NCBI GenBank assembly: GCA_965249065.1
Contig: CBDFLG010000001.1
Span: forward strand, 1,094,646-1,158,645
Direction of reading: 5' to 3'
DNA length: 64,000 bases
Origin: Dehalococcoidia bacterium
GTDB taxonomy: Bacteria; Chloroflexota; Dehalococcoidia; Lucifugimonadales; UBA3495
Each line of letters begins with the position of its first letter. The stretch's first letter is position 1. Shown in pieces: positions 50,090-54,042 of this stretch. Both the position numbers and the translations under genes were made by a program. The notes under the pieces were generated by a model, which worked only from the letters and a program-made list of their open reading frames with translations, made no database searches and was not told where the DNA came from.

Positions 50090-51067
50090 ATGGCAGAAGC
50101 ACTCAGAATTGAAGACCTGCACGTAGAGTTCCGCAGTCCAGCCGGCACGGTCAGGGCGCTCAACGGCGTCAGCCTGACCCAGGAAGAAGGCGAGATCTAT
50201 TGTCTGGTGGGCGAGAGCGGGGCCGGCAAGAGCACCCTGGCCTTGGCCATCATGGGATTGCTGCCGCAAAACTCCTCCGTGCTGGGTGGGCATATCTACT
50301 TCCGGGGCGTCGACCTGATGAGCGCCGGGCCAGAGTACATCCGAAGTCTGCGCGGGCATGAGGTCTCGATGGTGTTCCAGGACGCGCAGGCGGCCTTGAA
50401 CCCGGTCGAACCAATTGGTTCGCAGTTGGAGGAAGTAATCCACCAGCACAGCAGTATGTCGTTACGCAACGCCAACCGCCTAGCCCAAGAAATGCTCCGC
50501 GAGATGGGCCTGCCCGACCCCAAGCGGGTGATGGGGCAGTATCCCTTCGCCCTCAGCGGCGGGATGTGCCAGCGGGTGATGATGGCGATTGCGCTGGTGC
50601 TGCGCCCCCGCCTGCTAATCGCCGACGAGCCGACCTCCGGGCTGGACGTGACGCTGCAAGCGGAGATTCTGGAACGGCTGCGCGCTCTGGTGAGAGAGCA
50701 GGGTTCCTCGGTGCTGCTCATCACTCACGACATGGGAGTAGTGGCGTCAATGGCCAACAAGGTGGGCGTAATCTACGGCGGGAGCATGGTGGAGCACGCC
50801 GACGTAATCCCGCTGTTTCACCGCGCCCAGCACCCCTACACTTGGTCGCTGCTGCAATCCCTTCCCCGCCTCGACGACGTGGACCGGAAGATACAGCCCC
50901 TTCCCGGCAACCCGCCCGACCTGGTCAACATGGGCGAGGAATGCCCCTTCCTGCCCCGCTGCTTCAAGGCGGTAAACCAATGCCGCCACCACCCCCGCCC
51001 TCCGCTGGCCCAGACGGAGCCGGGCCACTACGTAGCCTGCTACAACCCAATGGCGCCGCCGGAATAG
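50090..51067 (+). CDS. oligopeptide/dipeptide-type ABC transporter ATP-binding protein (OppD/DppD-like), no cognate permease nearby
   Basis: GESGAGKST, LSGGMCQRVMMA, LLIADEPTSGLD, and the C-terminal oligopeptide-type extension (CPFLPRC). Confidence 0.85.
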   Translation: MAEALRIEDLHVEFRSPAGTVRALNGVSLTQEEGEIYCLVGESGAGKSTLALAIMGLLPQNSSVLGGHIYFRGVDLMSAGPEYIRSLRGHEVSMVFQDAQAALNPVEPIGSQLEEVIHQHSSMSLRNANRLAQEMLREMGLPDPKRVMGQYPFALSGGMCQRVMMAIALVLRPRLLIADEPTSGLDVTLQAEILERLRALVREQGSSVLLITHDMGVVASMANKVGVIYGGSMVEHADVIPLFHRAQHPYTWSLLQSLPRLDDVDRKIQPLPGNPPDLVNMGEECPFLPRCFKAVNQCRHHPRPPLAQTEPGHYVACYNPMAPPE

Positions 51068-51207
51068 GGCGGGATTCCACAATAATCCCCGGAACTGATG
51101 ACACATGGCAGTTGCGGCGGCAAGCTGGCGCACCGTATCGTATTGCCAACAATCTTGGCGAGAGCGTAGAGACAACGGCGCGGCCTCTCATCGGCGGAGA
51201 CCAACGG

Positions 51208-52101
51208 ATGCTTATGCTGAGCGAACTGGACGCCGCTCTGGAACAGATTCCCATTTCCCCAATACCGGCGGTGAACGTTGCGACTGTCCCGCAGCGCAGC
51301 CCGTTGCGTTACCCCGGCGGCAAGACCTGGCTCGTTCCCCACGTGCGCGCCTGGCTGTCTGGGCTGGAGCCAGCGCCTGAGTTGCTGATTGAACCATTTG
51401 CCGGCGGCGCTATCGTGTCCCTTACGGCCATCATGGAGGGATGGGCGTCCCGCTGCCTGATGTCGGAAATTGACCGCGACGTAGCTGCATTCTGGCAGGC
51501 CGCTCTGTGGCACAGTGAAGAACTGATTGACCGCGTTCAGAGCTTCGTCCCAACCCGCGAGAGCATCGCCCAGCTTCACAATAGCGCCTCCGGCGACGTT
51601 GTAGACCACGGGTTTCGGACTCTGGTGCTAAACCGCACAAGGCGGGGCGGTATTCTGGCCGACGGCGCATCATTGGCCCGCGTCGGTGAAGCCGGGAAGG
51701 GCCTAGCTTCCCGCTGGTACCCAGATACCATCTCACGCCGTATCCGGGCCGTCGCAGAGCACGCCGACCGTATAGACTTCCGTCAGACCGACGGCATGGA
51801 ATTACTGGAGCGTATGGGTGATACCCCACATTCCCGCACCGCAATTTTCGTTGATCCTCCATACACTGCCGCCGGCAAACGCGCCGGCAAGCGTTTGTAT
51901 AATCATAGCGTCATAGACCATCCGGGCCTTTTCCAGAGTCTGGCCCAAAGCGATGCGGACTTTTTGATGACCTATGACCAATCTCCCGAGATTATTGAAT
52001 TGACCCGCAAGCACGGTTTTTATACCAAGCGAGTCAACATGAAAAACACTCACCACGCCAAGATTTGGGAATTGCTGATTACGCGCCGCTCGGTATTCTA
52101 G
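51208..52101 (+). CDS. D12-class (Dam-like) N6-adenine DNA methyltransferase
   Basis: LRYPGGKTWL, EPFAGGAIV (FxGxG SAM motif) and IFVDPPYTAAG (DPPY catalytic motif). The upstream 214 codons of the tracked ORF overlap the ABC gene out of frame and are rejected. Confidence 0.8.
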   Translation: MLMLSELDAALEQIPISPIPAVNVATVPQRSPLRYPGGKTWLVPHVRAWLSGLEPAPELLIEPFAGGAIVSLTAIMEGWASRCLMSEIDRDVAAFWQAALWHSEELIDRVQSFVPTRESIAQLHNSASGDVVDHGFRTLVLNRTRRGGILADGASLARVGEAGKGLASRWYPDTISRRIRAVAEHADRIDFRQTDGMELLERMGDTPHSRTAIFVDPPYTAAGKRAGKRLYNHSVIDHPGLFQSLAQSDADFLMTYDQSPEIIELTRKHGFYTKRVNMKNTHHAKIWELLITRRSVF

Positions 52102-52134
52102 TCTGCCTTGTATCCTGCTTTCGCTGGACGGAAT

Positions 52135-53010
52135 ATGCCTCGGTATGGTATCGCTGAATGGTTCGGAAAGCCTCTAATATCACTCTCTCCCGAAGAGCGA
52201 ATGGAAATGGCTGTGTCCGCTTCAGGACAGGCGCAAGCGTTGCCATGTCCATTCAAACCTGGGCGGGCCGCCTGTTCCAAAGCGGGCGGAGTTTGCTCAA
52301 TACAACTTTATGACGAAGGGGAGGGCGGACGTACTGGTGCTGCGTCGGGCTGGCCGGTAATTACTTGTCCGGTCCGTTTTGACCAAGACTATTTGCTTGT
52401 CCGCTGGCTGGCTGAAATCGTTGGATTTTCGCCCGGCGAAGCCATGCTGGCCAGAGAGATTCCCTTTATGCAAAGCGCCGCTACCAACAAACCTGCCGGG
52501 AAGATTGACTTGGTAGTTGCCAGAACGGAAGGCAACCGCCTGGAATGGTATGGGCTGGAAATTCAGGCAGTCTATTTCTCCGGGCCAGGTATGTCCACCC
52601 AGTTCAATATCCTCGCCAATGACGACAATGCAACCCCGCCATACCCGGACCATATTCGCCGTCCTGACTGGCGTTCATCAAGCGCCAAACGTTTAATGCC
52701 CCAACTTCAGGTTAAAGTACCCACGGTCCGCCGGTGGAACTCTAAAGTCGCCGTAGCGGTGGACCGGCCTTTCTTTGAGTCTATTGGAGGGCCGAGCGCA
52801 ACTCCGAGCCAAGACATTAACGACGGCGATATTATATGGCTGGTTCCGGAGTTGTCCCGGAACGGCATTGATGGGAGCTTCCAGCTAACGCGAGGCCATT
52901 GGGAAGTTCTGACACTGGAGAGTTCCACGGACAAGCTGCTGGCGGCGAGAACAATTTCGCGTGATGTTTTCGAGACCGCGCTACAGGACAAACTCATTCC
53001 CTTGGAGTAG
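52135..53010 (+). CDS. NotI-family type II restriction endonuclease homolog
   Basis: IAEWFG...CPF...C..AGGVCS...ITCPVRF (4-Cys cluster) and IDLVVAR...YGLEIQAVYFSG. From memory these parallel NotI's AEFFG/CPF/GVC/LVCP and YGVLEIQTMDFHG segments. Starts 34 nt after the methylase stop. Confidence 0.6.
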   Translation: MPRYGIAEWFGKPLISLSPEERMEMAVSASGQAQALPCPFKPGRAACSKAGGVCSIQLYDEGEGGRTGAASGWPVITCPVRFDQDYLLVRWLAEIVGFSPGEAMLAREIPFMQSAATNKPAGKIDLVVARTEGNRLEWYGLEIQAVYFSGPGMSTQFNILANDDNATPPYPDHIRRPDWRSSSAKRLMPQLQVKVPTVRRWNSKVAVAVDRPFFESIGGPSATPSQDINDGDIIWLVPELSRNGIDGSFQLTRGHWEVLTLESSTDKLLAARTISRDVFETALQDKLIPLE

Positions 53011-53031
53011 CCGTGTTGATGCTGGCAGAAC

Positions 53032-54042
53032 CTACCGCCGGGGCGCCGAGTCGCCCACCAGCAGCTCCAGCGCTAGGTCGGGGTCGAGGCGGCCCTGCTT
53101 GATGGACAGGTCGGCTTCGAGCAGGCGGTCGTAGCGCCAGGCTATGTCCTCGCGGGAGTGGCGGCGGGCTTGGTCCATGGTTTTACGCACCACGAAGTCC
53201 GACGATGTTCCCAGCACCCGCTTGAGTTCGTTTTGTGGCAGGCGACGCTCCATCGAGTCGCGGGCCAAGGCCAGCAGCCGCAGTTGCCGCTCCACCATGG
53301 CGATGATGTAAAGCGGCTCGCGGCCATCGTCCCGCAGTTGGGCCAGCAGCCGCAGCGCCGCCTCCGGGCGGCCGTCAATCATCGCGTCCACCGCCTCGAA
53401 GATGCTGGCCTCGCGCACCTGCGACACCATCAGCCGCACGTCCGCCTCGCCGATCTCGCGTCCGGAGGCGTAGAGCGACAGCTTCTCCAACTCTTGGTCC
53501 AGCGTCCAGAGGTCACCGCCTACTAGGTCGGCCATCGAGCGGATGGCTGCCGGGCTGACAGCCGCCCCCTTGGCCTCGGCCGTCTGCTTGATCCAGCGGG
53601 CCAGTTGCTCGCCCCGGGGGGCTGCCTGCTCCTCGACGGTGCAGACCGGGCGAAGTTGCCGCAGCAGAGAATTGTTGGCCGACAGCGTTCCGTCGGTCAG
53701 CAACAGCAGCGTGGTCTCGGGCATTTGGGGGATGGCGTCGGCCAGGGCCTGCCAGCCGCCAGCGGAGTTACCGCCGCCTCGCCCACGTCCTCGACCTCCG
53801 CTCCCGCCACCGGAGCGCGATTCGGCGGTGGCCAGCAGCCCGTCCACCACCACCAGCCGCAGCGTGTCCAGGAAGGGCAGCGCCTGGCACGTTGCGAGCA
53901 GCTCCTGCTGGCTGACCTGCCCCCCCTGCATCCGGTGCCGGTTGGCGTCGAGCAAGGCGTCGGCCCCGTGCTCCGACTCCAACGCTGCCAGCCGCTGCCG
54001 CACCAAGAAGCTGTCGCCAAACACAACAAAGGCGGGCATCAC
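53032..54042 (-). CDS. holA: DNA polymerase III delta subunit
   Basis: 336 aa with delta-subunit layout (N-terminal FVVFGDSFLV..., C-terminal LKRVLGTSSDFVVRKTMDQARRHS...DLSIKQG). Contains a Gly/Arg-rich insert SRSGGGSGGRGRGRGGGNSAGG. Confidence 0.7.
   Translation of the reverse strand: MMPAFVVFGDSFLVRQRLAALESEHGADALLDANRHRMQGGQVSQQELLATCQALPFLDTLRLVVVDGLLATAESRSGGGSGGRGRGRGGGNSAGGWQALADAIPQMPETTLLLLTDGTLSANNSLLRQLRPVCTVEEQAAPRGEQLARWIKQTAEAKGAAVSPAAIRSMADLVGGDLWTLDQELEKLSLYASGREIGEADVRLMVSQVREASIFEAVDAMIDGRPEAALRLLAQLRDDGREPLYIIAMVERQLRLLALARDSMERRLPQNELKRVLGTSSDFVVRKTMDQARRHSREDIAWRYDRLLEADLSIKQGRLDPDLALELLVGDSAPRR

Follow-up and report, generated by a model that had tools for sequence, protein, structure and literature searches.

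Do the two genes inserted between an ABC ATPase gene and holA in this Dehalococcoidia genome form a restriction-modification (R-M) system, and can the base that their methylase marks be told? When reading the open reading frames of the window, the whole stretch of 64,000 nucleotides that was analyzed, we confirmed two intact, co-directional genes on the forward strand at 51208-53010. They are flanked, as an earlier note on this DNA had described, by a gene for an ABC ATPase with an oligo_HPY tail (50090-51067, forward strand) and by holA, encoding the DNA polymerase III delta subunit (53032-54042, reverse strand). The note had proposed a Type II R-M candidate, and this proposal is supported by a nuclease of Pfam family PF12183 and by conservation of the pair across contexts and in three gene arrangements. 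We put the probability at about 0.85 that the pair is a compact Type IIP R-M cassette of a D12-like methylase and a NotI-fold nuclease, intact but ordinary. In such a cassette, the methylase would act as an S-adenosylmethionine-dependent amino-methyltransferase that modifies a single base wherever a short recognition sequence occurs in the host chromosome. The nuclease, with its predicted N-terminal Cys4 metal cluster and D...E-x-Q active site, would cut the same sequence when unmethylated, probably as a homodimer.

A two-gene insertion with a NotI-fold nuclease

The whole inserted segment (51068-53031) extends from the ABC ATPase stop at 51067 to the holA stop at 53032 on the reverse strand and holds only the two R-M genes. 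A leader of 140 nt (51068-51207, forward strand) is the presumed promoter region, and a consensus scan of its forward strand found no sigma-70-like site. It is followed by the gene of an alpha-class, D12-like DNA methyltransferase of 297 amino acids (51208-52101; Pfam PF02086), a spacer (52102-52134), and the gene of a NotI-fold PD-(D/E)XK restriction endonuclease of 291 amino acids (52135-53010; Pfam PF12183), all on the forward strand. The spacer measures 33 nt, from the methylase stop ending at 52101 to the nuclease ATG at 52135, and not 34 nt as noted before. It carries the purine tract GGACGGA, which lies 4 nt ahead of this ATG and is likely a ribosome-binding site. There is a second in-frame start, a TTG at 52108; homologues begin at MPRYGI, which corresponds to the ATG at 52135. 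The methylase-first tandem order, the short spacer, and the ribosome-binding site together suggest co-transcription, by which the methylase would be made no later than the nuclease. No gene for a C-protein was found at the cassette, and a search around it for flanking direct or inverted repeats and for promoter or terminator signals gave nothing convincing. The segment had been called AT-richer than its surroundings, and its G+C content over 51750-53000 is indeed 0.52-0.55, compared with 0.63-0.71 for the flanks and 0.617 for the genome.

The assignment of the second protein to the NotI family, made earlier from motifs, is borne out by both a profile search and the predicted fold. It matches Pfam NotI (PF12183) with an E value of 8.7e-47 and 159.9 bits (cut-off, 22), residues 29-251 being aligned to profile positions 8-238 of 238, and a genome-wide search agrees. 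The four-cysteine cluster and the YGLEIQAVYF segment pointed out before are both present, and the cluster and the E-I-Q part of the segment are family-invariant. The cluster reads C38-P-F...C47-S-K-A-G-G-V-C54-S...C78-P-V-R-F, with its cysteine codons at 52246-52248 (C38), 52273-52275 (C47), 52294-52296 (C54), and 52366-52368 (C78); in 63-68 homologues C38, C54, and C78 are invariant, and C47, where not invariant, occurs in at least 90%. The putative catalytic residues D125 (52507-52509), E142 (52558-52560), and Q144 (52564-52566), the latter two within W138-Y-G-L-E142-I-Q144-A-V-Y-F, are invariant or nearly so in the 63-68 homologues, which are 30-85% identical. In NotI, glutamine takes the place of the catalytic lysine and iron is held in a Cys4 motif (PMC4081073). 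From the conserved residues we infer that D125, E142, and Q144 are equivalent to the NotI active site, with glutamine for lysine.

An AlphaFold2 model of the nuclease from a diverse alignment of 63 sequences reached a pLDDT of 95.9 and a pTM of 0.90. Foldseek against the PDB returned NotI chains 3C25_A (E=9.6e-10, TM 0.64/0.54), 3C25_B, and 3BVQ_A, at E values from 1e-9 to 4e-8, a probability of 1.00, and TM scores of 0.54-0.65. The NotI structures 3C25 and 3BVQ were the sole matches to the model at E≤0.001, and the next was BamHI at E=0.1. An earlier model from 49 close homologues (pLDDT 72) had given no significant fold match. The link to NotI comes from the Pfam model and the predicted fold. 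Sequence searches do not reach NotI: no match to it was found among all PDB sequences, even at E≤10, by phmmer with the nuclease or a Sedimenticola relative or by two family profiles of 15 and 68 sequences.

Conservation, mobility, and partners of the pair

The same methylase subfamily adjoins the nuclease in 63 of the 80 metagenomic loci, with the methylase gene first in 13, the nuclease gene first in 10, and the two genes convergent in 40. The pairing recurs in three unrelated chromosomal contexts and on four plasmid types, among them plasmids of Aeromonas, of Thermus, and of the IncP-1 group. In relatives the methylase and nuclease genes are separated by 3-31 nt or overlap, and there is no third conserved gene with them. 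Methylases and nucleases diverge in parallel, the plasmid relatives being 43-45% and 31-40% identical, respectively, to the proteins of the window. Its persistence across different contexts and three gene arrangements is why we regard the pairing as real. Nor is it unusual: most members of the nuclease clade are arranged in this way, and plasmid annotations already record the pair.

The spacer between the ABC ATPase and holA genes is a small variable defence hotspot of the genus. The nuclease is present in 6 of 24 congeners. One congener (G001) has an empty site, where just 37 bp separate the two flanking genes, and another (G002) has 170 bp between them; a third (G022) retains at this spot only an in situ remnant, the final ~100 codons of the nuclease gene. 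In G015 and L001 the site is occupied. The patchy distribution, the empty site, the remnant, and the low G+C content show that the pair is a mobile unit. No relatives of the nuclease were found among phage records. Depending on the species of the genus, the spacer holds R-M genes, a second, distant NotI-family R-M system, or AbiU-like genes.

The remaining loci, where enough flank was available, lack the D12-like methylase and all have a C5-methyltransferase gene beside the nuclease gene, some with Vsr. Identity between C5-linked and D12-linked nucleases is 77-83%, and the nuclease tree requires at least four partner switches between D12-like and C5-methyltransferases. One C5-linked nuclease (locus L060) is nested in the window's own clade at 58-61% identity. 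The C5-methyltransferase partners of the near-identical nucleases form a single conserved family whose members share 49-68% identity, variable region included, and this family adjoins PF12183 genes in all three genomes sampled. Its source names are all generic and give no specificity.

Could the pair be something other than a functional R-M system of the classical kind? The methylase might be orphan or regulatory and lie beside a decayed or repurposed nuclease, or the pair might belong to another defence logic, like the "RM+Abi" proposed for PD-lambda-5. The top PADLOC model for the methylase is PD-Lambda-5_B (E=1.4e-48, 164 bits, full length) and not a Type II methyltransferase, the nuclease is matched by no model of PADLOC 2.0, and the cassette is decaying in the congener where the C terminus of the nuclease alone is left. 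However, both open reading frames of the window are full length and carry every family-invariant residue. The strict linkage of two genes in three arrangements is what would be predicted for a toxin-like nuclease and its protective methylase, no third gene is conserved with them, and the A component of PD-lambda-5 is unmatched. We therefore consider such a function very improbable and retain the Type IIP cassette as our reading.

The methylated base and the recognition site

The methylase carries RYPGGK (residues 34-39; 51307-51324), EPFAGGAIV (residues 62-70; EPFAGG at 51391-51408), and, as motif IV, DPPY (residues 216-219; 51853-51864), all on the forward strand. The D12-class motifs YPGGK, EPFAGGAIV, and DPPY listed in the earlier note can thus all be read in the translation. 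The motif order X, I, IV (RYPGGK, EPFAGG, DPPY), with the target-recognition region between I and IV, is that of the alpha class, all three motifs are invariant in the subfamily, and a subfamily alignment shows every family-invariant residue to be retained. Pfam D12 (PF02086) matches weakly but above its cut-off of 22 (E=5.8e-8, 33.2 bits), with the best stretch spanning just the first 75 profile positions. The further designation as a Dam-class m6A enzyme proved to be an annotation-level label only: the NCBIfam dam model TIGR00571 scores 34.3 bits, below its cut-off of 114.85, and the best solved relative makes m4C. This relative is M.CbeI (PDB 7M6B), found by phmmer over the full length with E=1.6e-9, against 0.19 for Dam; identity to it is 25-28%. 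In profile comparison with hhalign, the methylase family matches the CbeI-like family with E=8e-25 (probability, 99.6%) and Escherichia coli Dam with E=5e-8.

M.CbeI and DmtB, both annotated as D12 and carrying DPPY, have been shown to make m4C (PMC3425538), and so neither the motif nor the D12 annotation fixes the methylated base. The labels "D12," "DPPY," and "DNA adenine methylase" should be read with this warning. It had been argued that an adenine methylase as protective partner implies an adenine-containing site; this does not follow, as M.CbeI has DPPY yet makes m4C in GGCC. Neither the base (m6A or m4C) nor the cut site can be read from the sequence, and the nuclease may have a specificity other than NotI's.

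The partner switches give some indication of the site. Since nucleases that are 77-83% identical use either a D12-like or a C5-methyltransferase, the site of these relatives must hold a protectable cytosine; this constrains the site in the plasmid-type clade to one with one or more cytosines at which C5-methylation is protective as well. In the clade of the window's nuclease a protectable cytosine is only suggested, the argument being weaker because the nearest C5-linked case is just 58-61% identical. Genome composition gave no further guide. The NotI site, GCGGCCGC, shows no depletion in the genome (202 observed versus 222 expected), in which many 6-mers are broadly depleted, GATC has an observed/expected ratio of 0.42, and methylase genes comprise 3 of the D12 type, about 12 of the N4/N6 type, and 2 of the C5 type. 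When five carriers of the genus were compared with three non-carriers, over 400 kb per genome and the whole genome for G000, no palindromes, including CGGCCG and GCGGCCGC, were depleted in carriers alone. We rejected palindrome avoidance as a route to the recognition site, as the genome-wide depletion cannot be tied to the cassette.

Two readings of the methylase can be set against these results. If it makes N6-methyladenine, the nuclease site would contain adenine and differ from NotI's GCGGCCGC and, with the C5 partners of near-identical nucleases considered, it would contain both A and C. The DPPY motif IV, membership in Pfam D12, and the PGAP name "DNA adenine methylase" for the plasmid relatives all point this way, as does the undepleted NotI site, and we give this reading close to an even chance. 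The relation of the methylase to PD-Lambda-5_B, the best PADLOC model, adds a hint. Mrr restricts m6A- and m5C-modified DNA, and an mrr-less cloning host would fit an adenine mark in PD-lambda-5. Cloning of PD-lambda-5 did require an E. coli host without the mrr region, but the modification seen by Mrr is not stated (PMC9519451). The hint is also distant, the phage-borne methyltransferases that were matched directly being 26-31% identical to the window's methylase. The m4C products of M.CbeI and DmtB speak against an adenine mark, as does the position of the family, which is clearly nearer the CbeI-like family than E. coli Dam.

Alternatively, the methylase may be an alpha-class N4-cytosine methyltransferase like M.CbeI, acting at a G+C-only site of the NotI/EagI type, perhaps with a GGCC core, where C5- and D12-like methylases would be interchangeable. 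M.CbeI is its closest solved and characterized relative, a C-terminal TYD-x-SPE block is common to the two enzymes and absent from Dam, the nuclease has the NotI fold, and near-identical nucleases pair with one conserved C5-cytosine methylase family. However, identity to M.CbeI is low, CbeI-type methylases partner a different, non-PF12183 nuclease, CGGCCG and GCGGCCGC are not specifically depleted in carriers, and the Mrr hint points the opposite way. We consider the cytosine reading plausible, at somewhat less than even odds.

A broader proposal, which we advance more tentatively still and think rather more apt to fail than to hold, is that the D12-like partners of NotI-fold nucleases, routinely given the mistaken name "DNA adenine methylase," form another lineage of N4-cytosine methyltransferases of the alpha class, the second, and protect the same cytosine-containing site as do the C5-methylases of 77-83% identical nucleases. 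If so, protection in the nuclease family would have switched naturally and repeatedly between m5C and m4C, with Vsr gained where m5C is used, repairing m5C deamination. Near-identical NotI-fold nucleases, some with a C5- and some with an amino-methylase, lend themselves to a clean cross-protection experiment, through which the recognition site could be approached. Enzyme suppliers would have some practical use for a new rare-cutter specificity, but none is demonstrated by these results.

Comparison with known systems

The Type IIP cassette is one more Type II R-M system of the kind that annotation pipelines already label. Its nuclease shares Pfam PF12183 with R.NotI of Nocardia otitidiscaviarum (PDB 3BVQ, apo; 3C25, with DNA), which is its only significant structural match and likewise has an N-terminal four-cysteine cluster. 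The PD-(D/E)XK core of the window's nuclease is predicted to have glutamine in the lysine position, as in NotI. The nuclease is shorter than the crystallized R.NotI chains (291 versus 342-354 amino acids), is 15-16% identical to them in structural alignment, and is partnered by a D12-like amino-methyltransferase and not by a C5-methylase.

M.CbeI from Caldicellulosiruptor bescii and DmtB from Anabaena are alpha-class m4C methyltransferases for GGCC. M.CbeI resembles the window's methylase in class, D12 annotation, DPPY motif, and common C-terminal blocks. CbeI-type methylases, however, adjoin a nuclease of 300-380 amino acids with no PF12183 match. R.CbeI-type nucleases were accordingly rejected as members of the NotI family, and the window's pair was rejected as a CbeI-type system, its nuclease not being CbeI-like. 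PD-lambda-5, from an E. coli prophage, protects its host against many phages (Vassallo et al. 2022, PMC9519451), and its component B is the top defence-database match of the window's methylase. Identification of the pair as PD-lambda-5 was rejected, as the nuclease matches none of the PADLOC models, component A included.

Other carriers of the nuclease family combine it with a C5-methylase and, in part, Vsr, as on the Sedimenticola thiotaurini plasmid NZ_CP011413 and in Rhizobium and Mesorhizobium chromosomes; unlike the window's pair, these cassettes would use m5C for protection and have an added mismatch-repair gene. The same two adjacent subfamilies as in the window are found on plasmids pEST4011 (NC_005793) and pIJB1 (NC_019378) and on those of Aeromonas veronii (NZ_CP121823) and Thermus brockianus (NZ_AP025595), where PGAP labels them "NotI family restriction endonuclease" and "DNA adenine methylase." On these plasmids the nuclease gene precedes the methylase gene, with a gap of 50-130 nt or a small overlap, whereas in the window the methylase gene comes first and the pair lies in a chromosomal hotspot.

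A gene pair flanked by an ABC ATPase gene and holA

The pair between the ABC-transporter ATPase gene (50090-51067, + strand), which ends at its stop on the left, and holA (53032-54042, - strand), whose stop faces the pair on the right, is real and intact, a predicted Type II restriction-modification (R-M) cassette of a conventional kind with a NotI-fold nuclease. Gene 1 (51208-52101, +) encodes a D12-like methylase of 297 amino acids with RYPGGK, EPFAGGAIV, and DPPY motifs, and gene 2 (52135-53010, +) encodes a nuclease of 291 amino acids with C38, C47, C54, and C78 and the segment WYGLEIQAVYF. The earlier note had described these co-directional frames accurately, except that the intergenic gap is 33 nt, not 34 nt. 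The nuclease ATG is closely preceded by a GGACGGA tract, and G+C across the pair is 0.52 to 0.55, compared with 0.63 to 0.71 in the flanks and 0.617 in the genome. The methylase frame is open for 214 codons upstream of its ATG (50566-52101), overlapping the ABC ATPase gene; a longer protein read from it looks like a high-G+C artefact, since homologues begin near MLxxxELD/PISPIPAVNVA.

The methylase and the nuclease form a unit. Members of the same methylase subfamily adjoin the nuclease in three distinct chromosomal settings and in 63 of 80 metagenomic loci, where the methylase gene precedes the nuclease gene in 13, follows it in 10, and converges on it in 40. The pair is also found on a 4-kb Aeromonas plasmid, the IncP-1 plasmids pEST4011 and pIJB1, and a Thermus brockianus plasmid, with methylases 43 to 45% and nucleases 31 to 40% identical to those of the window.

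Family and fold of the nuclease

Assignment of the nuclease to the NotI family, already proposed from the sequence, held up in a search with the Pfam NotI profile (PF12183), which matched with an E value of 8.7e-47 and was covered essentially whole; genome-wide, this is the only PF12183 gene. HMMER searches of PDB sequences with the nuclease or with profiles built from 15 or 68 members of its family gave no match, NotI included, and a first AlphaFold model, from an alignment of 49 close homologues, had a pLDDT of 72 and no fold match. When the alignment was rebuilt with more diverse metagenomic relatives before remodelling, the model reached a pLDDT of 95.9 and a pTM of 0.90. Its only significant PDB matches were the NotI structures 3C25 and 3BVQ (E values of 1e-9 to 4e-8; TM scores of 0.54 to 0.65), at 15 to 16% identity in the structural alignment; BamHI came next, with an E value of 0.1. 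Membership of the NotI family is supported by both the profile match and this fold match. Relatives at 30 to 85% identity all share C38, C54, C78, D125, E142, and Q144, and nearly all share C47. NotI has an Fe-Cys4 motif and a glutamine replacing the catalytic lysine (PMC4081073), to which the four conserved cysteines and Q144 may correspond. This is a large family, comprising 3180 clusters at 90% identity and 698 at 50%.

A variable spot and signs of mobility

The nuclease was found in 6 of the 24 congeners searched. We compared the ABC/holA spot in the window (51068-53031) with loci L048 to L052, L039, and L034. The cassette occupies the same spot in congener G015 and in the closest public relative, contig L001, while the flanking genes without it are 37 bp apart in G001 and 170 bp apart in G002. 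G022 has only a nuclease remnant there (codons ~186-287), G011 has another R-M pair (an N4/N6-type methylase of 671 amino acids with a nuclease that matches PF12183 distantly, at 34 bits), and G023 and G009 have AIPR/AbiU-like genes. This convergent spacer behaves as a small, variable defence hotspot in the genus. Searches around the cassette turned up neither flanking repeats nor recombinase genes.

Several further arrangements were seen. In L001 (1882-3807), two Uma2-family (PF05685) genes, missing from the window, lie between the ABC ATPase and methylase genes. Beside the AbiU-like insert of G009, the last ~41 holA codons occur again (L051, 4700-4822; 85% identical), at a distance of about 1 kb from the complete gene, which suggests duplication of the gene end by the insertion. 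Congener G021 carries the methylase-nuclease cassette three times on C4 (L038, L040, and L042, at 0.42, 1.00, and 1.05 Mb), in 100%-identical copies of at least 2.6 kb each, reflecting either a repeated mobile block or assembly duplication. A DDE transposase (DUF4372 and DDE_Tnp_1) immediately precedes a cassette of a C5-methylase and a NotI-family nuclease (L276, 1409-2563; L277, 106-1260) and is a possible vehicle for the C5 version.

Recognition site, methylated base, and known systems

In every locus lacking the D12-like methylase but having enough flank, a C5-cytosine methylase adjoins the nuclease instead, in some cases with Vsr. These C5 partners are one family (49 to 68% identical, variable region included), which also adjoins PF12183 genes in all three additional genomes that were sampled. 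C5-linked and D12-like-linked nucleases of the plasmid-type clade are 77 to 83% identical, and a maximum-likelihood nuclease tree requires at least four partner switches; the C5-linked nuclease L060 is nested within the window's own clade (SH-aLRT of 99%), with 58 to 61% identity to D12-linked members. Type IIP nucleases of such similarity normally share specificity. If, as we infer, this applies here, the site in those relatives must hold a cytosine protectable by C5-methylation. The step from a Dam-class partner to an adenine-containing, non-NotI site, taken in the earlier note, is removed by this constraint, with which an adenine in the site is still compatible. Through the partner swaps, the methylated base and the recognition site could both be approached directly by experiment.

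In the window's genome palindromes are broadly depleted, and about 17 methylase genes (3 D12, about 12 N4/N6, and 2 C5) make for a heavy R-M load. GATC is strongly depleted (observed/expected ratio of 0.42), as are many 6-bp palindromes (e.g., ACGCGT, 0.12; AAGCTT, 0.16; CAGCTG, 0.16). When palindromes were compared between carriers and non-carriers of the genus, nothing specific to the site emerged.

The D12 Pfam match of the methylase is weak (33 bits), and the NCBIfam dam model scores far under its cutoff. Its best solved relative is 7M6B, M.CbeI of Caldicellulosiruptor bescii (E value of 1.6e-9, full length), compared with 0.19 for E. coli Dam. Despite carrying DPPY and having been annotated as a D12 N6-adenine methylase, M.CbeI proved to produce N4-methylcytosine in GGCC, and the same was shown for its relative DmtB (PMC3425538; PMC8616854). 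Profile-profile comparison of the window's subfamily gave an E value of 8e-25 (247 columns) with the CbeI-like family and one of 5e-8 (188 columns) with E. coli Dam, which places it much closer to the former, although identity to the CbeI-like family is still only about 25%.

The top PADLOC model for the methylase is PD-Lambda-5_B (164 bits), the methylase of PD-lambda-5, an E. coli prophage defence system whose cloning required a host without the mrr region (PMC9519451). The kinship is distant, as phage methylases matched directly are 26 to 31% identical. From Mrr's known behaviour, that host requirement hints at m6A for the PD-lambda-5 methylase. PADLOC-DB 2.0 has no nuclease model matching the NotI-family protein (P0002), and PADLOC-based tools would probably call only the methylase or else an incomplete PD-lambda-5. 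The cassette type is not new: public records already annotate it, PGAP labeling the plasmid pairs as "NotI family restriction endonuclease" and "DNA adenine methylase."
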